A stretch of DNA of 64,000 nucleotides from assembly GCA_021323165.1 (NCBI GenBank), contig JAJTCJ010000017.1, forward strand, positions 8,645-72,644, given 5' to 3'. The translations under genes were made by a program, and so were the position numbers. This document shows, piece by piece, positions 27,704 through 47,548 of this stretch (position 1 is the first letter of the stretch; each line of letters opens with the position of its first letter). The notes below the pieces were generated by a model. That model worked only from the letters and a program-made list of their open reading frames with translations, was not told the origin of the DNA and did no database searches. The DNA is from Bacteroidota bacterium (lineage in GTDB: Bacteria > Bacteroidota > Bacteroidia > 2-12-FULL-35-15).

Positions 27704-28603
27704 TTAAGAGCGGGGATGAAACTGAATTATTGCCGACCTTAAATATTCCCTGTCAAGGTGCGTATAAATTTCAGTTGTTGTTATTGATTCATGCCCCAGC
27801 ATTTCCTGAACAGCTCTCAAATCAGCTCCGCCTTCAATTAAATGGGTAGCAAAAGAATGTCGGAAGGTATGCGGACTAATATGTTTTTTTAGTTGCGCTT
27901 TAGCGGCAAGCCGCTTTATTATAGTAAATATCATCACCCTTGTCAGCCTGGCCCCCCTTCTGTTAAGAAATAAAAAATCCTCATGATCCTTTTTAACTGG
28001 AATATGCACGCGGATCTCATCCTTGTAAATATTGATCTGCTTAATTGCCACGCTGCCTATAGGAACCAGCCTTTCTTTATCCCCTTTCCCTGTAACTTTT
28101 ATAAACTCATCATTAAAATACAAATGAGATATCTTAAGATTAACCAACTCGCTCACCCTTAAGCCGCAGCTGTAAAGAGTTTCAATCATCGCTTTATTCC
28201 GTTGCCCCTCATTCGAACTTAAGTCGATTGCCTCAATAATTTTGTTGATATCATTCACACTAAGCGTATCAGGAAGTTTTCTTCCAAGCTTTGGAGCTTC
28301 AAGTAATGTTGTTGGATCATTGCTAACAACATTTTCAAGCAGCAGGTACTTGTAAAAACCCTTGATTCCGCTTATCATTCTTGCCTGTGAATGCGCAGCC
28401 ATACCAAGCTCATTCACCCACTTTACAAAATCCTGTAAATGCTGGAGCTCCAATTCCTTTGGAGAGATTTCCATTTTTTTATATTCGAGAAACTGCAGAA
28501 GCTTGTGTACATCATGAAGGTATGCTTCCACCGAATTACCCGAGAGTGAGCGCTCCAGTTGTAAAAAAGATTTATAGCCCTGTATGTATGGTTTCCAGTT
28601 CAA
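27704..28603 (-). CDS. xerD: Site-specific tyrosine recombinase XerD
   Basis: LYSCGLRVSEL, GKGDKERLVP, SPHTFRHSFATHL, LGHESITTTEIY. Confidence 0.92.
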   Translation of the reverse strand: MNWKPYIQGYKSFLQLERSLSGNSVEAYLHDVHKLLQFLEYKKMEISPKELELQHLQDFVKWVNELGMAAHSQARMISGIKGFYKYLLLENVVSNDPTTLLEAPKLGRKLPDTLSVNDINKIIEAIDLSSNEGQRNKAMIETLYSCGLRVSELVNLKISHLYFNDEFIKVTGKGDKERLVPIGSVAIKQINIYKDEIRVHIPVKKDHEDFLFLNRRGARLTRVMIFTIIKRLAAKAQLKKHISPHTFRHSFATHLIEGGADLRAVQEMLGHESITTTEIYTHLDREYLRSAIIQFHPRS

Positions 28604-34043: not shown

Positions 34044-34472
34044 TCATTCGTTATAATCACTTGGAGCTATGCATGTCTTCCAGTATTCAACGATCTTTTT
34101 CATTGTATCTTCAAGCTCCTGGATCTCACTGGGTTTACGAAAAAATCCCTGAACAGACATTGCATAAGCATCAGCAACTGAAGTCTTATCCGCACCTGTA
34201 CTGAAAAACAAAAAAGGCACGCACTTTAATGCCAATGCTTTATTTTCATGGATCTTTTGTCTGAGCTCAAATCCATTGATCTTCGGCATATTGATATCGG
34301 AGATTATCAGGAAAGGAGTCTTATCAGTTTTATCAAGGAATTCAAGCGCATCATTACCATCAGTAAAAAACTGCAGCTCATTAGAATAATCCAGATTTTT
34401 AAATATTTCAGTTAATATCCTTTGATCGCCCTGATTATCCTCAATTACGATTATTGGTCCGTGTTTGTCCAT
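34044..34472 (-). CDS. Single-domain response regulator
   Basis: IEDN, SDINMP, FFST, RKP receiver motifs. Confidence 0.9.
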   Translation of the reverse strand: MDKHGPIIVIEDNQGDQRILTEIFKNLDYSNELQFFTDGNDALEFLDKTDKTPFLIISDINMPKINGFELRQKIHENKALALKCVPFLFFSTGADKTSVADAYAMSVQGFFRKPSEIQELEDTMKKIVEYWKTCIAPSDYNE

Positions 34473-34657
34473 TCTCTTTTTTATTCCTTCCTTCTAAACA
34501 TTCATACCCGGGTATATTATTTGTAAATAAACTAATGATAATAAGAACCAAAGAAAAGCGGACATCCCGGTCAGATGTATGGGGGAAAAACTTCTACATG
34601 CTTTTTTTCTGAATATTAAAATCAATAAATATCTTTATTCAACAGTAAATTTAAATT

Positions 34658-35038
34658 ATGCCGTATCACCATTTACTACTTATTGATGACGATGATGATG
34701 ATCAGGAGATCTTTCTAACCGCACTTGAAAAAGTATCAAAATCAGTAAAATGCACAACATTCAATAATGCCAAGGAAGCTTTAGAAGCCCTCATAAATAA
34801 AGAAGTTGAGCCGGATGTTATTTTCCTTGATCTCAATATGCCTTTGATGAACGGACAGCAATTCTTAATGGAAATAAAGAAAATCGATAGCCTCAAAAAG
34901 ATCCCGGTGATCATTTTTTCAACTTCTTCTCATTCAGGAACCATTGAGCTTACAAAGGAACTTGGTGCTCACGATTTTATAACTAAGCCCGATAAGTTTG
35001 ATGATCTTATTAATATACTGAAGCCTCTTATCAATTAA
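34658..35038 (+). CDS. Single-domain response regulator
   Basis: IDDD, FLDLNMP, FSTS, TKP; TAATG overlap with the downstream kinase. Confidence 0.92.
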   Translation: MPYHHLLLIDDDDDDQEIFLTALEKVSKSVKCTTFNNAKEALEALINKEVEPDVIFLDLNMPLMNGQQFLMEIKKIDSLKKIPVIIFSTSSHSGTIELTKELGAHDFITKPDKFDDLINILKPLIN

Positions 35039-37533
35039 TGAGTACAATACTAATTCATTTGGAAAAAGAAATTACTAAAACCAAGCATCAATTCCTCCAG
35101 GGTGGCGGAGAGATGGGAGAATTAACCAGGGAATACGACTGGGCTAATACACCGATCGGAGAGCCCGACAAATGGCCACAAAGTTTACGGACAACTGTCG
35201 CCATGATACTGAATTCTAAATTCCCCATGTTCCTGTGGTGGGGAGAAGATCTGATCCAGTTTTATAATGATGCTTACCGACCGAGCCTTGGTAATGAAGG
35301 TAAGCATCCGACAGCATTAGGACAAAAAGGAAAAGACTGCTGGCCTGAGATCTGGGCTGTTATTTATCCACTGATCAAGCAGGTAAGAGAAACAGGAGAA
35401 GCAACCTGGAGTGAAGATCAGCTTATCCCCATCTATCGAAACGGAAAATTAGAAGATGTTTACTGGACCTTTGGTTACAGTCCGATCAGAGGTGAAACCG
35501 AAGAAATAGAAGGAGTTCTGGTAGTGTGTAATGAAACTACTGAGAAAGTTCAGAACAATCAAAAGCTTGAACAATCAGAAAAGCGTTTTCAAAATCTCAT
35601 CAGGGAAGCAACCGTTGGAATTGTTGTCTTAACAGGTCAAGACATGGTCGTGGAGGTTGTTAATGAATCATACGGAAAGCTGATCGACAGAAAACCAGAA
35701 GAGCTGATAGGAAAAAAGCTCTTTGAAATTATCCCGGAAACCGGACCATATTTTAGGAAAATGATGGAAGGAGTCAGGGATACCGGAAAACCTGTATTCT
35801 TATATGATCATCCGTATTTTGTGTATTCAAAAGGAGAAAAGATCGAAGGGTATTTGAACATCATTTATCAGCCATACCGTGAAGAAGATGGAAGAACAAC
35901 CGGAGTAATGGCTTTATGTCATGATGTTACGGAGCAGGTTCTCTCAAAGAACAGATTACAGATAAGTGAAGAACGGACAAAAAGCCTTGTAGAAAGTGCA
36001 CCATTTCCTATAGGTGTATATATCGGAAAAGATATGGTGATCGAACTTGCTAATCAGGCGATTCTTGATGTGTGGGGAAAAGGGAATGATGTTATTGGCA
36101 AAAAATATTCTGATATTCTTCCGGAACTTGAAAATCAGAAGATCTTTGATCAGCTGGAAAGTGTTTATACAACCGGAATGCCTTTTCATGCAAAGAACCA
36201 GCGAGTGGATCTAGTCGTAGATAATAAAATGCGGATCTATTATTTCAATTACAGCTTCACACCTCTTTACAACAGTCATGGAGATATCTATGGCGTAATG
36301 AATACTGCTGCCGATGTTACTGACCTTGTTAAAATAAAAACTCAGCTGGAAAAAAGTGAAGATAATTTAAAGAACACCATTCTGCAGGCACCAGTTGCTA
36401 TGTGTCGTTTACGTGGGGCCAATCACCTTGTTGAGATCGCAAACATACGAATGCTGGAGCTGTGGGGAAAAACAGGAGAAGAGATCATTAACAAGCCTTT
36501 GTTTGAAGGGTTGCCCGAAGCCAAGGATCAGGGCTTTGAAGCTATGCTTGATAATGTTTATCAGAACGGAGCAACCGAGATAGCGCAGGCTGTCCCGGTT
36601 ACCTTACCCCGTAACGGGACCCTTGAGGTAGTTTATGTAAACTTTGTTTACGAAGCTTATCATGAACCTGATGGAAGCGTTTCTGGGATCATGGTTGTGG
36701 CTTCCGATGTAACAGCCCAGGTAATAGCAAAAAATAAAATTGAAGAAGTTGTTGCGAAACGCACAAAAGAACTTGCTGACACTAACAGTGATCTTCAGCG
36801 TTCGAATGCGGAGCTTGCTCAGTTTGCATATATCGCCTCACATGACCTTCAGGAACCTTTGAGAAAGATAAGCACTTATACGCAAATGCTTGAGAATCAG
36901 CTTGAGAATATTGATGACAAATCAAGAAACTATTTTAATAAGATCACAAGTGCTTCCTCAAGGATGAATAAACTTATCCGTGATGTACTTACCTATTCTG
37001 AACTGGTAAGGGAAAACGATGTGTTTGAAAAAGTAGATCTTAATAAAATTGCAGATGCAATCACTAACGATTTCGAGTTATTGATTGAGCAAAAGCAGGC
37101 TGTGATAAAATATCATGATCTTCCTGTGATTGAGGCAATACCATTACAGATGTCTCAGCTCTTCAGTAATATGCTTTCAAATGCGCTGAAGTTTTCCAAA
37201 CCCGGTGTAAAGCCAGTTATTACTATCTCATCAAAACAATTATCTTCCAATGAAGTTAAACTGATTCCTGATCTCGACCCTAAAAAATTATATTATAAAA
37301 TAGTGTTTAAGGATAATGGAATTGGATTTCGCTCGGAACACGGAGAGCAGATCTTTAATATCTTTCAGCGCCTTCATCGCAAATCCGAATATGAAGGAAC
37401 AGGTATAGGATTAGCTATGTGTAAAAAGATTGCAAAGAATCACAATGGCGATGTTAATGCTGATGGAACATCCGACAAAGGGGCAATATTCAACATTATC
37501 CTGCCGGCAACACATGTTTCGATTAAAAAGTAA
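35038..37533 (+). CDS. Cytoplasmic multi-PAS sensor histidine kinase
   Basis: Four PAS/PAC-like repeats; SHDLQEPLRKI H-box; NALKF, DNGIGF, GTGIGL. Confidence 0.93.
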   Translation: MSTILIHLEKEITKTKHQFLQGGGEMGELTREYDWANTPIGEPDKWPQSLRTTVAMILNSKFPMFLWWGEDLIQFYNDAYRPSLGNEGKHPTALGQKGKDCWPEIWAVIYPLIKQVRETGEATWSEDQLIPIYRNGKLEDVYWTFGYSPIRGETEEIEGVLVVCNETTEKVQNNQKLEQSEKRFQNLIREATVGIVVLTGQDMVVEVVNESYGKLIDRKPEELIGKKLFEIIPETGPYFRKMMEGVRDTGKPVFLYDHPYFVYSKGEKIEGYLNIIYQPYREEDGRTTGVMALCHDVTEQVLSKNRLQISEERTKSLVESAPFPIGVYIGKDMVIELANQAILDVWGKGNDVIGKKYSDILPELENQKIFDQLESVYTTGMPFHAKNQRVDLVVDNKMRIYYFNYSFTPLYNSHGDIYGVMNTAADVTDLVKIKTQLEKSEDNLKNTILQAPVAMCRLRGANHLVEIANIRMLELWGKTGEEIINKPLFEGLPEAKDQGFEAMLDNVYQNGATEIAQAVPVTLPRNGTLEVVYVNFVYEAYHEPDGSVSGIMVVASDVTAQVIAKNKIEEVVAKRTKELADTNSDLQRSNAELAQFAYIASHDLQEPLRKISTYTQMLENQLENIDDKSRNYFNKITSASSRMNKLIRDVLTYSELVRENDVFEKVDLNKIADAITNDFELLIEQKQAVIKYHDLPVIEAIPLQMSQLFSNMLSNALKFSKPGVKPVITISSKQLSSNEVKLIPDLDPKKLYYKIVFKDNGIGFRSEHGEQIFNIFQRLHRKSEYEGTGIGLAMCKKIAKNHNGDVNADGTSDKGAIFNIILPATHVSIKK

Positions 37534-37567
37534 TAGAAGAAAAGCTCCTTCCAGTGCTTTTCTTCTA
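37534..37567. terminator. Bidirectional hairpin between the convergent kinase genes
   Basis: TAGAAGAAAAGC / GCTTTTCTTCTA inverted repeat. Confidence 0.7.
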
Positions 37568-37572
37568 TATAA

Positions 37573-39909
37573 TTATTTCAGTTCTTCAATTTCCATTTTG
37601 AGAGGATCTTTAACCTCATTATAACATTTTTCTATCTCATTATATTTGAGACGTATCTCCTCTATAGGATATTTATTATCTGCCAAACGCTCCACCTGCT
37701 TGATTATATCACCAGTTTCTTCAATACCCAAAGTAAGAAATAAGCCCTTCATACTATGCGCGTATATTTTAATATCCCCATAATTTTTCTGATCTATTGA
37801 GGACTTTAGTTTTGTAAGTGCCTGCGGAACATCATTAATAAACAAGGTGATCATTTCAATGATAAATTCCTTATCACCATCAGCATGATCGATGAGGTAA
37901 TCAAGATTAAATAAAGGCTTCCCTTTAGATACATTTTTAACAACCACTTTTTCAGGTTTGCCGGACTTATTCATTAGCTGCATGATCACTTTTTTTAAGT
38001 AGTTTGCATTAAAGGGTTTTGACACATATGCATTCATCCCGATATTGATACATCTCTCAGCCTCAGAATTGGACGCATGCGCAGTAATAGCAATTATCGG
38101 AATGTTCTTTTTACGATAATCCTTCATGTCCCTGATAATACGAGTGGCAGTATAACCATCTATTTCAGGCATCTGAATATCCATCAGTATAAGATCATAA
38201 TCCTTCTCTTTTAATTTTTCTATCGCTTCTGCTCCATTGTTAGCAATATCAAGTTTATACTTCCACTTGGCCATTATCTTCTGAACAAGCCTTTGATTCA
38301 AAGGAATGTCCTCTGCAAGCAGAACTGAATATGATTCATTACTATCTGAAGTTACACCAACATTTTTCGTTATATCCACGCTTGGTTTTTCGGTGGTCTT
38401 CTTAAATCGCATAATAAAGTTAAAAGTAGAACCTACTCCTTCTTTGCTTTCTACTTCTATCTTTCCGCCTTGAAGTTCTACCAATTGCTGAACAATTGTC
38501 AAACCCAAACCAGTACCACCATATTTCCTTGTTGTATCTGAAGAGCCCTGCGTAAATCTTTCAAATATCAATTTGATCTTTTCAGGAGGAATTCCAATGC
38601 CTGTATCTTTAATACTGAACTTATATTTAATATCAAGCCCGGTATCTTCCAAAACTTCTGTACTGATGCTCACCTCACCTTTTTCTGTGAACTTGATGGC
38701 GTTACCAATAAGGTTCAGGAGTATCTGACTTAATCTTGCTGAATCACCCATTAAATATTCAGGAGATGCCGGATCTATTTTAATACTGATCTGAATATCT
38801 TTTTCCTGAGCTCTGTGTTCAACCAATTCAACAACTGATCTAATAATTTCAGTCACACTGAAACTCGCTTCTTCAAAAATAAATTTTCCTGCTTCTATTT
38901 TAGAAAGATCAAGTATATCATTAATGATTACGAGCAAGTTTTTACCAGCAAAATCAATAGATTCAACATATTCTCTTTGCTCAGGATTCAATTGTGTTTC
39001 TTTAAGAAGCTCCTGAAAACCAAGGATCGCATTTAAAGGAGTGCGGATCTCATGGCTCATACTTGCCAGGAATTGTTCTTTTACGGTTTTAGATTCTTCG
39101 GCTATTTTTTTAGCAGCGATAAGCTTTGCATTTTTTTCAACGAGTTCCTGGGTTCTTTCTTTAACTCTTAATTCAAGCTGATTATTAGTTTCAGATAATG
39201 TATGATCATGTTTTTCAATCTTCTCAATCATTTTATTAAAGGCCATAGAAAGTTTCGCTACTTCATCCTTTCCTTTAAAACGGGAACGCAGACTGAAATT
39301 CCCGCTTTTCATTACATCTTCCATTACATTAACCAGATCAATGATTGGAGTTGAAATATATTTCTGTAAGAAATATGCAAGGAAGTAAGCTAATAATCCG
39401 CCTATAAAAATGATCAGTAGCGCGAGTTTCATTTTTTTATAAAGCTGTGCTTGAATATCTGAAAGATCAACCTTCAGGCATACTGTACCAAGCCACTCCT
39501 TATTACTGAATATTTTATAATAAACGAACAGATCATTTCCACTTGTATGAGAGAACATGTTCATTTTAGGTACATACGAAAATGTAAACGGGTCTGCCTG
39601 TTTGCGCGTAAATGCAGCGAATACTTTCCCTGTAGTGTCAATAATACTGGCGTTGGTTATTGTTGATTCAACATTAAGATCGGTAAGTGTTTCATAAGCA
39701 GTTTCTGTATCACCAAAAAGGATTGGAGCTACTGTATTTGAACCAATAACCTGTGCAATGGAAGAACTTGATTTGATCTTATTCTCACGCATTGCCTTAT
39801 AATCGATGACCACAAATGTAAGGGAACATAAAACGATCACTACCACAGCAGTGGTAAGCTGCATTAAGATCAGCTTACGGTGAATCGATATATTAGTTAA
39901 CAATCCCAT
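37573..39909 (-). CDS. Hybrid sensor kinase (periplasmic CHASE8-like, HAMP, HisKA, HATPase, REC, Hpt)
   Basis: Two TM helices; DEVAKLSMAFN HAMP; SHEIRTPLN; GGTGLGL; LMDIQMP; AHSMKG Hpt. Confidence 0.92.
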   Translation of the reverse strand: MGLLTNISIHRKLILMQLTTAVVVIVLCSLTFVVIDYKAMRENKIKSSSSIAQVIGSNTVAPILFGDTETAYETLTDLNVESTITNASIIDTTGKVFAAFTRKQADPFTFSYVPKMNMFSHTSGNDLFVYYKIFSNKEWLGTVCLKVDLSDIQAQLYKKMKLALLIIFIGGLLAYFLAYFLQKYISTPIIDLVNVMEDVMKSGNFSLRSRFKGKDEVAKLSMAFNKMIEKIEKHDHTLSETNNQLELRVKERTQELVEKNAKLIAAKKIAEESKTVKEQFLASMSHEIRTPLNAILGFQELLKETQLNPEQREYVESIDFAGKNLLVIINDILDLSKIEAGKFIFEEASFSVTEIIRSVVELVEHRAQEKDIQISIKIDPASPEYLMGDSARLSQILLNLIGNAIKFTEKGEVSISTEVLEDTGLDIKYKFSIKDTGIGIPPEKIKLIFERFTQGSSDTTRKYGGTGLGLTIVQQLVELQGGKIEVESKEGVGSTFNFIMRFKKTTEKPSVDITKNVGVTSDSNESYSVLLAEDIPLNQRLVQKIMAKWKYKLDIANNGAEAIEKLKEKDYDLILMDIQMPEIDGYTATRIIRDMKDYRKKNIPIIAITAHASNSEAERCINIGMNAYVSKPFNANYLKKVIMQLMNKSGKPEKVVVKNVSKGKPLFNLDYLIDHADGDKEFIIEMITLFINDVPQALTKLKSSIDQKNYGDIKIYAHSMKGLFLTLGIEETGDIIKQVERLADNKYPIEEIRLKYNEIEKCYNEVKDPLKMEIEELK

Positions 39910-40448
39910 TAATTTTTAATATTCAATGCTAATTTTAATAGCTGAGAACTCGCCTTAATATTGTTTCTGTTGAGTGAATTAAGATTCACTTCAAATTTTA
40001 TCTTGTTATTTACAATAAGGAAGTTGATCGCGGATCCTAAGTCCAGATCACCTTTTTGTTCGCTTACAATAAGTGCATTCTTTATAGAAGGGGCTTGTAA
40101 AGACCTCTTAATGTGTTCAGGAGAAATATGTTCAGGAATAAATAGCATATGACAGGTTTTAATATCTCCTGCATCACTGTATTTAGTTATGTTGATCTTC
40201 TTATTGTTGATCTTTTTATTTGCTGCCAGATCATTTAAAGGGCTGACTATTGGCGAATCACCTAAAACACAAATATTGAAAGTTGAAGCATTGTTCAATG
40301 AATTATCTTCCCACTCTACAAATTTCGTAAAATTGTACATGAAGGCTGCCTTTGCCTGATACTCTTCAACCTCTGTTTGAATCATCACAAAGGATGAACC
40401 TAACAGGAGTAATAGAAACATAAATAAGCAACAGGCTTTTCTTTTCAT
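39909..40448 (-). CDS. YfiR (DUF4154) family periplasmic protein
   Basis: EYQAKAAFMYNFTKFVEW; two Cys; INF...KIKFEVN...SSQLLKLA. Confidence 0.9.
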   Translation of the reverse strand: MKRKACCLFMFLLLLLGSSFVMIQTEVEEYQAKAAFMYNFTKFVEWEDNSLNNASTFNICVLGDSPIVSPLNDLAANKKINNKKINITKYSDAGDIKTCHMLFIPEHISPEHIKRSLQAPSIKNALIVSEQKGDLDLGSAINFLIVNNKIKFEVNLNSLNRNNIKASSQLLKLALNIKN

Positions 40449-40488
40449 AAACTGGAATTGAGAAAATAATTCTTAATTTCTCTGTTTG

Positions 40489-41241
40489 TTATTGAAACTT
40501 TATTCGATTTTCGATTAAAGGAGTAACAGGAGTATTTAATATTATATATTCTTTAATTGCATTTGATTGATTCTCCTGAAGATTTTCTTTCATTGAAGAT
40601 GAAATATTCTTAAGAGTAACATAACCATCATTTCCATCGGCAATGAAGGCAGGAAACGCCACAGTATAAACTGTATTCGAATCAAGCATAGCCTCCTGGA
40701 TCTTAACAGATGTAATTCGGTTGCCCGGACTTATTATTACAGTTCCTTCTATATTAATGACCTGAGGTGACTGATTAGTATCGATAGTAATTTCAAGTTC
40801 TTTTGAGAGTTGCAGAAAGGGTCCTTTGGTTAATGGATATTGTGCAACAGAGCGTTCAAATACCGATTTAAGATCTTTGCCATTCAGTTTGATCAAAACT
40901 GTAGGATCCCCGAATGGAAGCATTTCATCAATCATTTCAGCAGTAATAATTCCACTCGGATAAATTCCATTTGGTCTTTTTGAAGCGCTGTAACGGATAC
41001 TTCCCGCATTTACCACAGCACAATCAATTAACTTTCCTTTACTAACCACATTATTAAAAATAGCATCACATATAAGGTTTCCGATCACAGATTCTTTTTT
41101 CCTGATTACATTTTCCCTGGCATCCATATCCACAGTAACCGTTCCCAATGCTGTAGGTTCAGGTAAGTGCTCATCTTTACGGCAGGCATCCGCCAATAAC
41201 AGAAGTAAAATGAAACTTGAAATTTTCAGAACTGTTTTCAT
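40489..41241 (-). CDS. Lipoprotein consisting of a stand-alone 5'-nucleotidase C-terminal (substrate-binding) domain
   Basis: Lipobox ADAC; R..IR..ES.IGNL..DA, NAGSIR, MLPFGD, FIADGNDGY; no metallophosphatase domain. Confidence 0.85.
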   Translation of the reverse strand: MKTVLKISSFILLLLLADACRKDEHLPEPTALGTVTVDMDARENVIRKKESVIGNLICDAIFNNVVSKGKLIDCAVVNAGSIRYSASKRPNGIYPSGIITAEMIDEMLPFGDPTVLIKLNGKDLKSVFERSVAQYPLTKGPFLQLSKELEITIDTNQSPQVINIEGTVIISPGNRITSVKIQEAMLDSNTVYTVAFPAFIADGNDGYVTLKNISSSMKENLQENQSNAIKEYIILNTPVTPLIENRIKFQ

Positions 41242-41246
41242 TTTCC

Positions 41247-43379
41247 TTATAATTTATAAATTACATTCAGCAGTAATGAAGGCCCGGGCTGAATAAGTCC
41301 CTTTAATCCAAATGCATTGATATTTGTGGATTCTTCAGGATCACTGTATTTTTGTGTCCCAAGATTATTTCCAATAATATTGATATTTAAATGCTTATTA
41401 ACACTATACCCTAAGGTGATATTTCCCTGTAAATAATAAGGGATACGAACATAGTGATCGGTTTCCAGATAAAAGCGTTTATTATTTTCGGCTTCGTTAC
41501 CATAGTTAATTCCAATAGCTATGAATACTTTTTTTATTGTGTAATCAAATCCTCCGTTTAATTTTAAGGTTGGGACATTCCTAAGCTCTTTGTAATAATC
41601 CGGCTGCTTATCATAAAACGCAACATCAGATGCTCTTACATTATTTTCATTCCACTTGAACGTACTTAAGAACTGAGAATAATTTGCAAAAACATGGAAT
41701 TCAGGTGCAAGAGCTAGTGTAATTGTTCCCCCATTTCCGTAAGTTTCGACATCCCCGATATTCTCGTATATACCAATACTTCCTCCCCCATGTGGATCAT
41801 AAACTCTTATTAAATTTCTATTCTGAATGTAATACAGGTTGTATTTTATCTGCAGCTTTTTATAATTGATCACTGTACCTATTTCGACTGTATTAATATC
41901 TTCAGGAGTGAGCTTAGTATTGCCTTTTACCCCATACTCATTGCCAATTGTTGAATTATCATATAACTCCTGGAATGAAGGTGCCCGGAATGCTTTTCCG
42001 TATAAACCTTTAAAATGAATATGCTGGGTAGCTTTATAAGTAATGCCCAAACGCGGGTTAACAGACTGACCAAAATCATTATAGTCATCATATCTCAATC
42101 CTGCTGTTACTGTAAATTTCTTTATACGGAAATTAGTTTGAAGGAAATATGCAAAAACGAATCTTCTTTTTTTATCCTGAGTAAATTCAATATTATCATA
42201 ATTATTAAAAGCTCCTTGATATTCATCTCCCACAATTTTATAATTACGTGACAGATCATATTTCGCCAGAGAAAGATCTTCGAACACGCTGCCTGTTAAG
42301 ATATCAAAATGTTCATTGGCTTTAATGTAAATATCAAGAGAACTTCCGTAGGTCACTCCAGTGTATTTTTCTCGTGTAAGCTTACCATCTGGAAAGAGAT
42401 CTCCTGAAGTAGCTGATACATAATTATCAGGTGCCTCCTGATTAAGAAAATCATGCGTATTTGAATTATAATAAAGTTTAGGAGTTATTATAACATTATC
42501 GCCAATCCTGTAGTCATAAAAAATATTTGCTGCAAGCTGATTGGTAATTAATTTGGAATCAGGTGACGCAATAAAAACCGGACCGACCCAACTCCCTTGC
42601 TGCCTGTAAATATTAAATAAATTAAAGTGCAGATTATTAGAAACTAAATTACAATTTACATATCCATCCTTATTCCAACGGTTAGTTCTATAATTTTTAT
42701 CCATGTAAGTTAAGCTCCATTCCTGATCTTTTACTTTATCACTTTCGATCAGTTGTGAGTTACCATCGCTCTGATAATATCCTAGTGAAAGATCAAGTTT
42801 AACTTTCTCGTTTTGAACAGTATAATTTGCGTTTGCATTTAGTGTCGAATTCAATCCACCGGTAACGCTAACGGAGGTCTGACTTATAGTAAAGATGTTT
42901 ATTACGCCAGCCATTGCGTTACTTCCGTAAATTGCAGATCCGGGTCCACGGATAATTTCGACTTTCTCTATAAAATCTAATGGAAGATCATAAATAGCCC
43001 TTCCATTATAAAAATCATTTATCTGTTGGCCATTTATCAAAACCAATATATTACCATCTTTGCGGCCTCCGCGTAAAGAAATCCGATATTGTCCATCTGT
43101 TCCCATACTCGTTTCGATTCCCGGGATAAATTTCAAGAGATCAATAAGTGTGATCGCTCCAAAATTCTTAAAATCGGAATGTTCAATAACAGAAATAATT
43201 GCGGGTGCTTCTGTTTCTAATTGTGGTTTTTTAGCCGCGCTGAATACTTTCAACTCTAGAAGTTCTTCAAGAGAAAGGTCAGCGATATCACCGTTCTTTC
43301 CCGTTGAATCATTTTGGGAAAATGAAATCAGAGGAAAAAAGAGTATTATGACAAAAAGTATTGTGTTTCTATTAACCAT
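41247..43379 (-). CDS. TonB-dependent receptor (YfiR-operon type)
   Basis: DLSLEELLELKVFSAAK N-terminus; plug IEIIRGPGSAIYGSNAMAGVINI; GLRYDDY, AFRAPS barrel motifs. Confidence 0.92.
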   Translation of the reverse strand: MVNRNTILFVIILFFPLISFSQNDSTGKNGDIADLSLEELLELKVFSAAKKPQLETEAPAIISVIEHSDFKNFGAITLIDLLKFIPGIETSMGTDGQYRISLRGGRKDGNILVLINGQQINDFYNGRAIYDLPLDFIEKVEIIRGPGSAIYGSNAMAGVINIFTISQTSVSVTGGLNSTLNANANYTVQNEKVKLDLSLGYYQSDGNSQLIESDKVKDQEWSLTYMDKNYRTNRWNKDGYVNCNLVSNNLHFNLFNIYRQQGSWVGPVFIASPDSKLITNQLAANIFYDYRIGDNVIITPKLYYNSNTHDFLNQEAPDNYVSATSGDLFPDGKLTREKYTGVTYGSSLDIYIKANEHFDILTGSVFEDLSLAKYDLSRNYKIVGDEYQGAFNNYDNIEFTQDKKRRFVFAYFLQTNFRIKKFTVTAGLRYDDYNDFGQSVNPRLGITYKATQHIHFKGLYGKAFRAPSFQELYDNSTIGNEYGVKGNTKLTPEDINTVEIGTVINYKKLQIKYNLYYIQNRNLIRVYDPHGGGSIGIYENIGDVETYGNGGTITLALAPEFHVFANYSQFLSTFKWNENNVRASDVAFYDKQPDYYKELRNVPTLKLNGGFDYTIKKVFIAIGINYGNEAENNKRFYLETDHYVRIPYYLQGNITLGYSVNKHLNINIIGNNLGTQKYSDPEESTNINAFGLKGLIQPGPSLLLNVIYKL

Positions 43380-43401
43380 AAATTAAAAACGACTAACTAG
43401 T

Positions 43402-43409
43402 CAAATTTA
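43402..43409 (-). promoter_or_regulatory. -7 promoter element for the receptor-YfiR operon
   Basis: TAAATTTG, 23 nt upstream of the ATG. Confidence 0.6.
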
Positions 43410-43654
43410 TAGATAAATCGACTCTCGCGCAACAAAAACTTTAATATGTTTATAATCTGGAAAAAAGGGAAAATATATCCCCGACCAGTACTTACATATA
43501 AGTTCTAATAAGAAATCTCGGAAACCGGCTTCTGACAATATACTCGATAAGAGACAAATGTAATTTTCTTCATTGGCAGATTATTTTACCGGGATTCTCG
43601 ATCAGCTATTAAAACTCCCTGGATAGCATATTATTAAACTATAATTTTCTATGC

Positions 43655-45304
43655 ATGAAAAAAAGCTACTTTGTTTTTATAATCAGTTTTGTATACTGTA
43701 ACTGTTTTGCCCAGGATTTTCTATGGTCAAAAGTCGAAGGAAAATATGCTTACGATTACGGTTATGGTATCGCTACAGACAATTCAGGGAACGTTTATGT
43801 GACCGGTAAGTATGAAGAGCTTGCAGATTTTAGCGGAACCATCTTACCAAATCAGGGTAACCATGATATTTACCTTGCTCAATATTCCCCTTCTGGAAAT
43901 TTAAACTGGATAAGGACCGGTGGAAGTTATACCGGTGACTATGCCCGTATTCTTGCCTGCGATAAAACAAGTCATGTATATATAGCAGGGGAAATAGAAG
44001 GAGTTAATTCTACCATAGTATTTCCGGGCTCTTCCATAACAATTACCGGACATGGTGAAAATGATGTGTTTGTCGCTTCGTACGATCTTAATGGAAATTT
44101 ATTATGGGCCAGAAGTGAAGGTGGAATTTATAATGAAAAAGCTTTGGGTGTTGCCTATGATATGTTGGGAAATGTAATAATATGTGGATTTTTCAATGAC
44201 ACAACCAACTTTGGAGGAACTACATATGTAGGAAATGGAGGCAAAGATCTTTTTGTTGCGAAATATGATTCTAATGGAAATCTTTTGTGGATGAAACACG
44301 CTGGAGGTCCTGGGGAAGAAGAGGCAAAATCTGTAGTATGTGATGATGATGGAAATATTTACATCTGCGGCAAATATTCAGATGGAGTAATTTTCGGAGA
44401 TGATGATTATTCAACAGCAGTAACTCAATACGGACAATTCTTTAATGGATATGTCGCAAAATACTCATCTGATGGGACCTTTCTATGGATGAAAAATATA
44501 GATGGTGATTATGACGATATTGCTTGGTCAATAACAAAGGATAACAATCATAGAATTTATGTAACCGGGGAGTTCAGCGGTGCGGTATTCGATTCTCTTA
44601 CATTATATACCTATGGGAAAGCTGATGTATTTGTTGCATGTTATGATGAAGAAGGCGTTATTCAGTGGGCGGTGCACGGAGGAGAATTACTTGCTGACAG
44701 AGCAAGAGGCATTGGTACTGATGGAGACAAGATTTTCATTACCGGTCAGTTTGCCGGAACTGCCGTGTTTGGTGATCATACAATTTCTGCAATTGACAGT
44801 TCAGATATTTTTGTGGCCGGACTCGACAATACAGGTCAATTCCTATGGGCAAGATCTGTTGGTGGAATAGCTGACTCTTATGAGCCTGATGGTTATGAAT
44901 CCGGAATTGCAGTGTGCGGTGACACATCCGGGGTAGTATATTTCACAGGAGCGTTATTAAATGGCGGTGTCTTCGGAAATACAAGTCACTACGGATATAC
45001 AAGAACGGATGTTTTTATATCAAAATTATCTACTGTTGTTGGCCTTGACGAGAGAGTAAACAATAAGAATCAACTCTTGATCTATCCTAACCCCGGAACC
45101 GGAATATTCAAAATCTCCACAAATCAGATCAAAGGACATGACACGGAAGTTAGTGTATATAATTACCTGGGAGAACTTGTTAAACCGGCAGATATTACAA
45201 ACTCTGAAATGCATATCGACCTTTCAGATCAGCCAAAAGGAATTTACTTTGTTCATGTTAATTCAGGGAATAATTCATTCATTGAAAAGATCATCCTGAA
45301 TTAA
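43655..45304 (+). CDS. SBBP-type beta-propeller repeat protein with T9SS type A CTD
   Basis: Repeats D..GN.Y.TG ... D.FVAKY...G.L.W; IYPNP...KGIYFV CTD. Confidence 0.87.
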   Translation: MKKSYFVFIISFVYCNCFAQDFLWSKVEGKYAYDYGYGIATDNSGNVYVTGKYEELADFSGTILPNQGNHDIYLAQYSPSGNLNWIRTGGSYTGDYARILACDKTSHVYIAGEIEGVNSTIVFPGSSITITGHGENDVFVASYDLNGNLLWARSEGGIYNEKALGVAYDMLGNVIICGFFNDTTNFGGTTYVGNGGKDLFVAKYDSNGNLLWMKHAGGPGEEEAKSVVCDDDGNIYICGKYSDGVIFGDDDYSTAVTQYGQFFNGYVAKYSSDGTFLWMKNIDGDYDDIAWSITKDNNHRIYVTGEFSGAVFDSLTLYTYGKADVFVACYDEEGVIQWAVHGGELLADRARGIGTDGDKIFITGQFAGTAVFGDHTISAIDSSDIFVAGLDNTGQFLWARSVGGIADSYEPDGYESGIAVCGDTSGVVYFTGALLNGGVFGNTSHYGYTRTDVFISKLSTVVGLDERVNNKNQLLIYPNPGTGIFKISTNQIKGHDTEVSVYNYLGELVKPADITNSEMHIDLSDQPKGIYFVHVNSGNNSFIEKIILN

Positions 45305-45307
45305 AAT

Positions 45308-45341
45308 AAAAAAGATCCGGCTGAAAACCGGATCTTTTTTT
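45308..45341. terminator. Bidirectional intrinsic terminator
   Basis: AAAAAAGATCCGG-loop-CCGGATCTTTTTTT. Confidence 0.85.
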
Positions 45342-45343
45342 GT

Positions 45344-47548
45344 TTAAAGTGAATATCTCACATTTAAATAAAAACTTCTTCCCCTGGTTCTGAATCCGTT
45401 GATCTCAGAGTATTTCTCATCAAGCACATTTGCAACTCTGAGGCCTGCGCTTAAACCTTTCCAGATCTTAACATTTGCAGACAGATCAAGAAGTGTATAT
45501 TGTTTTACATTTACAGTTCCCAATGCACCATATGGTCCCAGAGCCGGATCATAAACAACATCACCGCGTCCTCCGACATAACGAACATCTGCTCTAAGCA
45601 TGAGTATAGTTATTGGGCGATATGTTAAAGAAATGTTAGCTGTGTTCGGCCTGCGTGATAATCCTAAAACCTCTATATCCTTATCATTGATGAAAGAACC
45701 ATTGCTGTATATCTGAACATGGTTTCCTCCTGTCTGAGCCGTATCAATATTTTCTTTAGTATATTTTAATTTACCGCTTGTTAAACTTAGGTTTGCCGAT
45801 ACCGTAATCTTTCCAGAGATCTTACTGCTGATCCCCAACTCCACTCCTTCAGTGGTCATGGAAGCAGCATTAATATATGTATCACCGCGGTAATCATCTC
45901 TTCCCCAGTTTTGTCCTAATGTATCCGTTCCAATATTTTTATCCCAGAGATAAACATATTCAATTACATTTTCAACAACTGTTTTATAATATGCGGCAGA
46001 AAGCTCAATATTATTTATTCTTTGTTTAAATCCCACTTCAAATGTTTTAGAAGTTTCCGGGTTCAGTTTTTTATTCCCTCTGTTCAAACCTGTTGAAGGT
46101 TGTCCATCCCATGGCTTATATGCAGTAGGATCATACAACTGATAAAGAGAAGGAGCATTATAACCCGTGGAATAAGTCATGTAAAGCAACGCTGTTTCTG
46201 TGATCTTAAAAGACGGATTAATCTCGTATGTTATATTACTTCCAAATATACTGTGATCACTGTATCTCAACCCTCCGGATAAATTCAGCCAATTATATTT
46301 ATCATTGATCAACTCCCCTCCGATATCAGCATGCATAAATATGCTTCCTGTAGTAGATTTCGGATCAACAGAATCAACGGATGTTTTTATTTCTTCGTAA
46401 CCAGCCGGAAAACTCCACATATTGTAATAATAAAGGCTTGTATTTATTCTCATTGATTCAGAATACACACCACCGCCAACAACAGCACTCAGACCTTTGA
46501 TCTTGTAATTGGCCTGGAGCTCTTCGCTTTCTAATTTCCCTTTGTAAGTATTCTTGACATATTGTCTGTCATTATCCCCATTGCTATTGATACGGGATGA
46601 ATCATCTATCGCGATCCTTTTCATATCCGACATCCCGCCAATATATGAAACGCTTAATTTCTCATTCACTTTATATGATGCACCAAAAGTGAACAGATTT
46701 CTTTTAAAGTCTAATGTATAATTATCATCATCACGATAAGCCCCTTTATCTATTTCGGTGAATTGATTCGTTTGTTTGAATGAAGCATATACATCAATTT
46801 TTTTATTATTAAAACCTGCTTTAACAAGCCAGTCAAGCTTATCAAAATCATCGCTCATATCGGAATGTTTATAGGCTGTAGTGCTTTTGACAGTATCTTC
46901 TGTCGCATTCATGCCTTGAACATTGGTATTATAAAGCTCAGCAGAAACATACAGTCCGTTCTTTAAAGCATAATTCAGATATACATTTTCTGAGATCTCT
47001 GAAGTATTGTTACCGAAAGTACCTCCCAAAATAGATACATCTGCTGAAAGACCCGCCTTCTCAGACTTTTTAGTAATGATATTTATCACTCCCCCGATAG
47101 CTGCTGACCCATATAAAGTGCTGTGGGAACCTCTTACAATTTCAATTTTCGAAATATTAGCAAGAGATAGTTCTGAAACATCAATCGCATTATTAATTGC
47201 GGAAGGATCGGTGATACGCACACCGTCAATTAAAATAACAGTTTGATTACTGTTGGCCCCACGTGTAAATATACTGGAGGTTAGACCCGGATTCTGACCT
47301 GCTCCAACAGCATACATTCCTTCCTGCACTGTTAGTAATTCGGCAACAGACGTTGCACCGGATCTTTTAATCTCTTCAGAAGTGATTACACTAATACTTC
47401 TGCCAACATCATTGGGATCTTGTTCACTTCGTGTTGCTGTAATAACAACTTCCTTTAATTCTTTTTTCTTTAATGAATCCTGAGCGGATACACTCATTGA
47501 TAAACACAGAAAGGTGCTTACCGCAATAAAACATTTTTCCTTTTTCAT
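45344..47548 (-). CDS. btuB: TonB-dependent vitamin B12 receptor (BtuB-like)
   Basis: EVVITATR; IEIVRGSHSTLYGSAAIGGVINI; directly downstream of a cobalamin riboswitch. Confidence 0.85.
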   Translation of the reverse strand: MKKEKCFIAVSTFLCLSMSVSAQDSLKKKELKEVVITATRSEQDPNDVGRSISVITSEEIKRSGATSVAELLTVQEGMYAVGAGQNPGLTSSIFTRGANSNQTVILIDGVRITDPSAINNAIDVSELSLANISKIEIVRGSHSTLYGSAAIGGVINIITKKSEKAGLSADVSILGGTFGNNTSEISENVYLNYALKNGLYVSAELYNTNVQGMNATEDTVKSTTAYKHSDMSDDFDKLDWLVKAGFNNKKIDVYASFKQTNQFTEIDKGAYRDDDNYTLDFKRNLFTFGASYKVNEKLSVSYIGGMSDMKRIAIDDSSRINSNGDNDRQYVKNTYKGKLESEELQANYKIKGLSAVVGGGVYSESMRINTSLYYYNMWSFPAGYEEIKTSVDSVDPKSTTGSIFMHADIGGELINDKYNWLNLSGGLRYSDHSIFGSNITYEINPSFKITETALLYMTYSTGYNAPSLYQLYDPTAYKPWDGQPSTGLNRGNKKLNPETSKTFEVGFKQRINNIELSAAYYKTVVENVIEYVYLWDKNIGTDTLGQNWGRDDYRGDTYINAASMTTEGVELGISSKISGKITVSANLSLTSGKLKYTKENIDTAQTGGNHVQIYSNGSFINDKDIEVLGLSRRPNTANISLTYRPITILMLRADVRYVGGRGDVVYDPALGPYGALGTVNVKQYTLLDLSANVKIWKGLSAGLRVANVLDEKYSEINGFRTRGRSFYLNVRYSL

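Follow-up and report, generated by a model that had tools for sequence, protein, structure and literature searches.

In the YfiBNR system of Pseudomonas, the outer-membrane lipoprotein YfiB sequesters the periplasmic protein YfiR (PMC4655355). Pairs of a TonB-dependent transporter and a surface lipoprotein are known from Bacteroides, where BtuB-BtuG provide the example (PMC10404256), and among 5'-nucleotidases the open form of CD73 binds adenosine monophosphate (AMP) wholly through residues of its C-domain, at a preformed site (PMC8677862). A further set of proteins, a receptor/YfiR-like/kinase trio, is already modelled in NCBIfam as NF053590 (TOL_0244 receptor), NF053591 (TOL_0243 YfiR-like) and NF053592 (YfiR-associated kinase domain); a literature search on this trio, including DUF4154 and CHASE8, found no experimental study in the portions of the literature it returned. 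Here we describe four co-oriented genes on the minus strand (37573-43379) of a 64,000-nucleotide (nt) stretch of a soil Bacteroidota genome, contig JAJTCJ010000017.1 of assembly GCA_021323165.1, referred to in its entirety as the window. They encode a TonB-dependent receptor, a lipoprotein, a YfiR-like periplasmic protein and a hybrid histidine kinase, and we find this cassette to be a Bacteroidota-specific four-gene variant of the widespread receptor/YfiR-like/CHASE8-kinase trio in which the lipoprotein is the new part. On the evidence of its sequence, the lipoprotein has an intact nucleoside-monophosphate pocket and lacks a catalytic domain.

The lipoprotein, at 250 amino acids (aa), matches PF02872 alone in Pfam and has no Metallophos (PF00149) domain. 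Its AlphaFold2 model (predicted local distance difference test score, pLDDT, 88.6) has as top Foldseek matches the T. thermophilus 5'-nucleotidase and CD73 C-domains (template-modelling score on the query 0.69-0.75), among solved proteins the C-terminal domain of human CD73 comes nearest to it (E 2e-19), and its NCBIfam matches include NadN and UshA. CD73 clamps the base between F417 and F500, holds the ribose through N390 and D506, and holds the phosphate through R354 and R395 (PMC8677862). These residues align with F110, F199, N78, D205, R47 and R83 of the lipoprotein, respectively, and the six AMP-contact positions are kept in 57-59 of the 59 members of its family, F199 being F or Y, so that the pocket is under selection although the catalytic half is missing. 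Compared with UshA, CD73 and the split form of the enzyme found in Bacteroidota, the lipoprotein has the same C-terminal fold and the same six nucleotide-contacting residues, whereas it has neither a metallophosphatase domain nor an adjacent metallophosphatase gene, and the nearest full-length enzymes found are 25-37% identical to it. Because the catalytic domain is absent, phosphohydrolase activity of the lipoprotein alone is not expected. An initial annotation of the window, made from the sequence, had described this protein as only the substrate-binding domain of a UshA-type 5'-nucleotidase; the single PF02872 match and the full nucleoside-monophosphate site bear that description out.

A search of 5.8 billion proteins places the lipoprotein in a family of 59 clusters, the query included, of which the other 58 are 46-79% identical to it. 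Apart from two fragments, family members are 239-260 aa long and PF02872-only, and just two longer relatives were found, at 31-32% identity. Cys20 is invariant in all 29 aligned family members. In our genome collection, 11 Bacteroidota loci from metagenome-assembled genomes (MAGs) encode a copy that is 49-63% identical, and nine more loci, at 25-37% identity, encode ordinary 5'-nucleotidases of 502-575 aa. No copy was detected in 400 other sampled genomes of the phylum (E<=1e-30), nor in a genome of the same genus (G363). These results define the family as a rare, Bacteroidota-specific and distinct clade of proteins of ~250 aa. A separate possibility, that the lipoprotein is a decayed fragment of a full-length enzyme, is ruled out by the 59 clusters of ~250 aa, the invariant lipidation cysteine and the protein's own signal peptide.

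For comparison with ordinary trios, we sampled 80 metagenome loci among the matches listed; their receptors are 24-42% identical, and they are ordinary trios, not orthologues of the cassette. A YfiR-like reading frame is present in 44 of these listed loci and a CHASE8-HAMP kinase N-terminus in 28, and a hidden Markov model (HMM) of the lipoprotein family matches none of the 80. In all 37 of the listed loci whose receptor and YfiR genes share a strand, the two are too close together for a gene to fit between them. The cassette resembles the trio in its co-oriented order of receptor, YfiR-like protein and CHASE8 sensor, in the three protein types, and in detail: its receptor has the SLEEL segment and plug of trio receptors, and its kinase has the CHASE8-HAMP N-terminus. 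It differs in the 250-aa lipoprotein gene between receptor and YfiR, and in how its products score against the curated models. The YfiR-like protein passes NF053591 narrowly (126.3 bits, cut-off 125), whereas the kinase reaches 163 bits against the NF053592 cut-off of 194, over the full model (1-222), and the receptor 135.1 bits against the NF053590 cut-off of 645, in two stretches, the better of which pairs residues 31-168 with model positions 1-143. Since ordinary trios do without the lipoprotein, the receptor itself probably talks to YfiR. The statement in the initial annotation that no characterised system has this composition thus needs to be narrowed: the addition of the lipoprotein is indeed unusual, but the core of receptor, YfiR-like protein and CHASE8 kinase is already in NCBIfam.

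The four-gene order recurs in 11 other Bacteroidota loci, which argues that the cassette is not a chance juxtaposition. Gene calling and Pfam annotation of these neighbourhoods (75 of 92 open reading frames, ORFs, scanned, the other 17 lying at the far flanks) show the order uninterrupted in nine of the 11: in seven loci as such (L007, L009, L010, L011, L012, L013 and L019), in L014 with the receptor cut by the contig start, and in L015 with the kinase cut by the contig end. In L008, a second receptor is inserted between lipoprotein and YfiR, and L016 is decayed, beginning at the lipoprotein gene and retaining a truncated YfiR and only an Hpt remnant. Counted by junction, the receptor gene lies directly upstream of the lipoprotein gene in all 10 assessable loci, YfiR directly downstream of it in 10 of 11 (L008 being the exception), and a CHASE8 kinase after YfiR in 10 of 11 (the exception being L016). 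The flanking genes vary among these loci, which include Crocinitomicaceae, Chitinophaga and unclassified Bacteroidia, and the kinase of L011 joins the same CHASE8-HAMP head to a different body, with PAS repeats and a separate receiver. The initial annotation had made its proposal depend on the order being conserved elsewhere and had suggested a neighbourhood search for 5_nucleotid_C-only genes between receptor and YfiR genes; the 11 loci with a related lipoprotein include the nine uninterrupted ones, and the order is conserved there and, with the extra receptor, in L008.

The same comparison points to the receptor as the probable partner of the lipoprotein. The two genes are 5 nt apart in the window, and at most 15 nt apart or overlapping in six of the 10 other loci. 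At L008 (4866-12957), where the order is receptor 1, lipoprotein, receptor 2, YfiR, kinase, the lipoprotein adjoins the orthologous receptor 1; receptor 2 is 24% identical and also SLEEL-bearing. Judging from this arrangement, one YfiR may serve two receptors, and the receptor and lipoprotein genes may form a pair that can be separated from the rest. A predicted complex of receptor residues 24-710 with lipoprotein residues 21-250 scored 0.18 (mark 0.32), a result that we count neither for nor against binding. A search for the receptor in 400 other genomes of the phylum gave no match at E<=1e-40, in a weak test that scored two candidates per genome.

Ahead of its plug, the receptor carries a conserved N-terminal segment, DLSLEEL-x4-V-x-SA-x-KK, in which S36, E38, L40 and V45 are invariant across an alignment of 10 orthologues. 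The SLEEL motif occurs in one of the eight TonB-dependent receptor reading frames detected in the cassette's own genome, namely the cassette receptor, and the segment is seen again both in trio-type receptors of the sample and, in the same-genus genome, in the receptor next to YfiR. This distribution is a correlation that fits a family-specific segment for periplasmic signalling. The YfiR-adjacent receptor of G363 (L030, C9:141055-143738) has an MSLEEL N-terminus and overlaps its YfiR-like gene by 4 nt; the next gene there encodes an asparaginase, so that this receptor-YfiR pair has no adjacent sensor or kinase.

Downstream of the receptor, the YfiR-like protein shows weak, full-length similarity to the solved P. 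aeruginosa YfiR (E 1.3e-3). Two cysteines of its mature region, Cys60 and Cys99, align with two cysteines of P. aeruginosa YfiR, which we take to form a disulfide in that protein. In the kinase, two hydrophobic segments flank CHASE8, and the phosphorelay motifs are H286 (HisKA), D577 (REC) and H718 (Hpt). Like YfiBNR (TpbB/DgcN) of P. aeruginosa and E. coli, the cassette combines a YfiR-family periplasmic protein (PF13689) and a CHASE8-HAMP membrane sensor with an outer-membrane component in the operon. It departs from YfiBNR in that weak resemblance of its YfiR-like protein to solved YfiR, in its kinase output, HisKA-HATPase-REC-Hpt in place of a GGDEF cyclase, and in having no match to YfiB (OmpA/Pal-like) among the four genes or the 16 scanned neighbours in the window. 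The YfiR-like genes of G363 are 32-34% identical and stand in other arrangements. At one of them (L031, C7:300653-303970), genes for a TPR protein and a HAMP-SpoIIE (PP2C phosphatase) membrane protein come after the YfiR-like gene, so that the output of this YfiR module would be a phosphatase.

The N-terminus of the lipoprotein bears on where the protein may reside. In Capnocytophaga, Lauber et al. found that lipoproteins are best exported to the surface by the signal C-X-K-(D/E)2-X, whose position is critical (PMC5080379). From Cys20 on, the lipoprotein reads C-R-K-D-E-H, a match to this signal that adds a point for the idea of a SusD-like lid. Among 186 lipoproteins predicted in its own genome with a PROSITE-like lipobox rule, K is commonest at +3 and D/E at +4, and 12 carry C-X-K-[DE][DE]; the C-domain lipoprotein of the split enzyme, starting C-S-G-S-T-K, has no match. 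The genome, at 89.6% completeness, has no match to SusD_RagB (PF07980), and classical Sus systems may therefore be missing from the genome that harbours the receptor-lipoprotein pair. With SusC-SusD and BtuB-BtuG the cassette shares a lipoprotein gene directly after the receptor gene, the export signal and a ligand-binding fold; it differs in that this fold is that of a 5'-nucleotidase C-domain, in a receptor that lacks the SusC signature, and in the joining of the pair to a YfiR/kinase module instead of an uptake locus.

Taken together with the conserved order, we tentatively favour, at somewhat less than an even chance, a reading in which a surface nucleotide-capture lipoprotein partners the receptor and feeds a YfiR-gated phosphorelay. 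The lipoprotein would be lipidated at Cys20 and then flipped to the cell surface by way of the C-R-K-D-E export signal, where it would capture an extracellular nucleotide and present it to the receptor, as BtuG and SusD do with their ligands. In receptors of this type, the TonB-box region becomes exposed once the ligand is bound. By analogy with YfiB, the ligand-loaded receptor might then expose its periplasmic N-terminal segment and capture the YfiR-like protein, which would lift the hold of YfiR on the CHASE8 domain of the kinase and let the kinase run a His286 to Asp577 to His718 phosphorelay to a response regulator. The identity of the ligand, the surface location, the pairing of lipoprotein and receptor and the whole of the relay are inferences.

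Several observations weigh against this reading. In a tally of 57 family N-termini (six rows re-anchored by hand), the export signal is full in 17, partial in 28 and missing in 12, the last group having a basic run with no acidic residue at +2 to +6. The lipobox of the window lipoprotein, A-D-A-C, has Asp at -2 and fails the PROSITE-like rule; most relatives have [SA]-C. Given the 12 N-termini without a match and the 28 with a partial one, surface exposure may not hold across the family; it is likely for the subclade of the window lipoprotein and uncertain for the family as a whole. Both the members that lack acidic residues after the cysteine and the atypical lipobox would suit a periplasm-facing lipoprotein that replaces YfiB as a nucleotide sensor anchored in the outer membrane, sequestering or releasing YfiR according to periplasmic nucleotide, with a receptor that merely admits the nucleotide. 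Such a role has the precedent of YfiB, an outer-membrane lipoprotein that sequesters YfiR (PMC4655355), and the lipoprotein gene is close to yfiR, at 40 nt in the window and 0-92 nt in nine other loci. The tally, however, also counts 45 of the 57 members with K at +3 plus at least one D/E at +4 or +5, 17 of them with the full signal, and at L008 the lipoprotein and YfiR genes stand apart, with an entire receptor gene in between. Together with the lack of a lipoprotein in all 80 listed trios, where YfiR comes straight after the receptor in 37 of 37, this makes the receptor the likelier partner of YfiR, and we consider a periplasmic replacement for YfiB unlikely.

Further points on the opposing side concern the receptor and its ligand. 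The step in which the YfiR-like protein is sequestered is drawn by analogy from YfiB-YfiR. The receptor is not SusC-like (TIGR04057 17.3 bits vs a cut-off of 46.2), and the literature search yielded no study of a TonB-dependent receptor handling nucleotides. The aromatic clamp of CD73, moreover, binds all nucleoside monophosphates and also riboflavin, a flavin, and caffeine (PMC8677862), so something other than a plain nucleotide could be the ligand. The lipoprotein could accordingly partner the receptor with a flavin, a dinucleotide, a nucleotide-sugar or a cofactor that contains a nucleotide, which would be imported as a nutrient, with YfiR and the kinase doing no more than tuning expression. 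Relatives in the wider family act on nicotinamide adenine dinucleotide (NAD) and uridine diphosphate (UDP)-sugars, as the NadN and UshA matches indicate, and the best general NCBIfam matches of the receptor are heme and B12 receptors, all far under their cut-offs. Set against this, 57-59 of 59 family members retain both phosphate-binding arginines, R47 and R83, as well as the Asp and Asn that hold the ribose, which fits a ribonucleoside 5'-phosphate moiety, larger ligands containing one included, and we hold a nutrient ligand of this other kind to be decidedly unlikely.

The lipoprotein could, finally, be borrowing the genome's one stand-alone metallophosphatase, a last point that tells against the nucleotide-capture reading. 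Three PF02872 genes are present in the cassette's own genome: one lies in the cassette, one encodes a full-length enzyme and one belongs to a split pair on contig C60 (C60:17406-18939, L002), in which the gene of a 219-aa C-domain lipoprotein directly precedes a Metallophos gene with a twin-arginine translocation (Tat) signal. Catalysis requires both halves, and split pairs also occur in five other cassette genomes (G401-G405), where ~100 nt separate the metallophosphatase from the short C-domain gene that goes with it. The cassette lipoprotein might on these grounds be the substrate-binding half of a split 5'-nucleotidase whose metallophosphatase is encoded at a distance, within a nucleotide-scavenging operon that has its own regulator. 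Yet no unpaired 5'-nucleotidase-type metallophosphatase was found in any of the six cassette genomes, the own genome being 89.6% complete, and there is no Metallophos gene among the scanned neighbourhood ORFs (75 of 92) of the 11 loci. As each stand-alone metallophosphatase already abuts its own C-domain gene, the cassette copy is supernumerary in all six genomes, which makes it unlikely that a metallophosphatase dedicated to it is encoded at another site. The export signal, in addition, would carry the lipoprotein to the cell surface, away from the Tat-signal metallophosphatase in the periplasm. We regard a split enzyme as very improbable. The initial annotation had itself named an ordinary split 5'-nucleotidase as what would undo its interpretation, and the lack of a spare metallophosphatase in six of six genomes makes that outcome unlikely. 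Its interpretation is partly supported: the gene identities and the order stand, the pocket and the lack of a spare partner speak for it, and what makes the composition unusual is the lipoprotein alone.

The layout of the cassette in the window (Table 1) is as first annotated. The ORF call reproduces the coordinates of the four co-oriented genes identically, the Pfam matches uphold their identities as TonB receptor, 5_nucleotid_C-only lipoprotein, YfiR and hybrid kinase, and the junctions, read directly, are TAA-GGAAA-ATG between receptor and lipoprotein (5-nt gap), a 40-nt spacer between lipoprotein and yfiR, and TAATG, with a 1-nt overlap, between yfiR and kinase.

Table 1. Features of the four-gene cassette and its putative flanking regulatory elements, in window coordinates.
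Feature	Position	Strand	Description
TonB-dependent receptor	41247-43379	-	710 aa; Plug 3.6e-21, TonB_dep_Rec_b-barrel 4.6e-34 (Pfam)
Lipoprotein	40489-41241	-	250 aa; 5_nucleotid_C (PF02872) 5.3e-30, sole Pfam match
YfiR-like periplasmic protein	39909-40448	-	179 aa; DUF4154/YfiR (PF13689) 3.3e-40
Hybrid histidine kinase	37573-39909	-	778 aa; transmembrane segment 1 (TM1), CHASE8, TM2, HAMP, HisKA, HATPase_c, REC, Hpt
Candidate Bacteroidota-type -7 promoter element TAAATTTG	43402-43409	-	22 nt before receptor ATG
Second TAnnTTTG match TACATTTG	43555-43562	-	
Closing hairpin	37533-37568	-	13-bp stem; after kinase stop codon

The candidate regulatory elements fared less uniformly. TAnnTTTG is the consensus promoter element of the phylum. 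In the window, it is found 63 times against 76 expected, that is, with no enrichment, so that it is the position of TAAATTTG alone that speaks for a promoter role. The single candidate promoter element of the initial annotation is thus present just before the receptor ATG, but its motif is not enriched and a second match, TACATTTG, lies upstream. A sigma-70 scan gave 33 promoter-like sites against 26.7 expected, the sigma-70 model being uninformative for a Bacteroidota genome. Between TACATTTG and TAAATTTG, the 275-nt leader contains a terminator-like GC hairpin with a T-run (43467-43482, minus strand) that belongs to no Rfam family. An Rfam search of 37300-43800 (E<=1) gave as its sole match a chance snoRNA-like one inside the kinase gene, and no leader element. 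The closing hairpin holds up well, at -17 kcal/mol and z = -4.9, with none of 200 shuffles as good; it is common to the cassette and the convergent gene ending at 37533, and a simple terminator scan did not list it. No RNA datasets containing the 5.8-kb stretch are listed, and two soil-metagenome DNA runs are, one of them possibly the origin of the sequence itself.

Around the cassette, the upstream region (43655-47548) encodes a beta-propeller protein sorted by the type IX secretion system (T9SS; Por_Secre_tail) and another TonB-dependent receptor, 734 aa long, whose TonB box is of the ordinary kind; the same pair is found at L007. On the other side, 34044-37533 contains a receiver-only gene (142 aa, minus strand) near a pair formed by a receiver (126 aa) and a PAS histidine kinase (831 aa). 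This pair is convergent on the cassette, and these neighbours are also found at L007. Possible acceptors for the Hpt domain of the hybrid kinase are the two receiver-only genes, at 34044-34472 and 34658-35038. At a distance of ~9 kb from the cassette, 27704-28603 (minus strand) encodes a tyrosine recombinase (Phage_integrase).

We regard as doubtful, while considering it a possibility worth stating, the complete scheme of a trans-envelope sensor of extracellular nucleotide, in which the lipoprotein would load the receptor, the YfiR-like protein would read receptor occupancy and the CHASE8 hybrid kinase would receive the signal. The fold and pocket of the lipoprotein name a candidate class of ligand for the trio, nucleoside 5'-phosphates. 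If the scheme is true, this would be the first ligand for any member of the receptor/YfiR-like/kinase trio and, as far as our literature search shows, the receptor would be the first nucleotide-handling TonB-dependent receptor. The lipoprotein would likewise, within the reach of that search, be the first catalytically headless nucleotidase domain serving as a binding protein, with the substrate-binding domain of an enzyme reused as a stand-alone binding protein, and the pairing of transporter and lid-like surface lipoprotein in Bacteroidota would extend from nutrient uptake to signalling.

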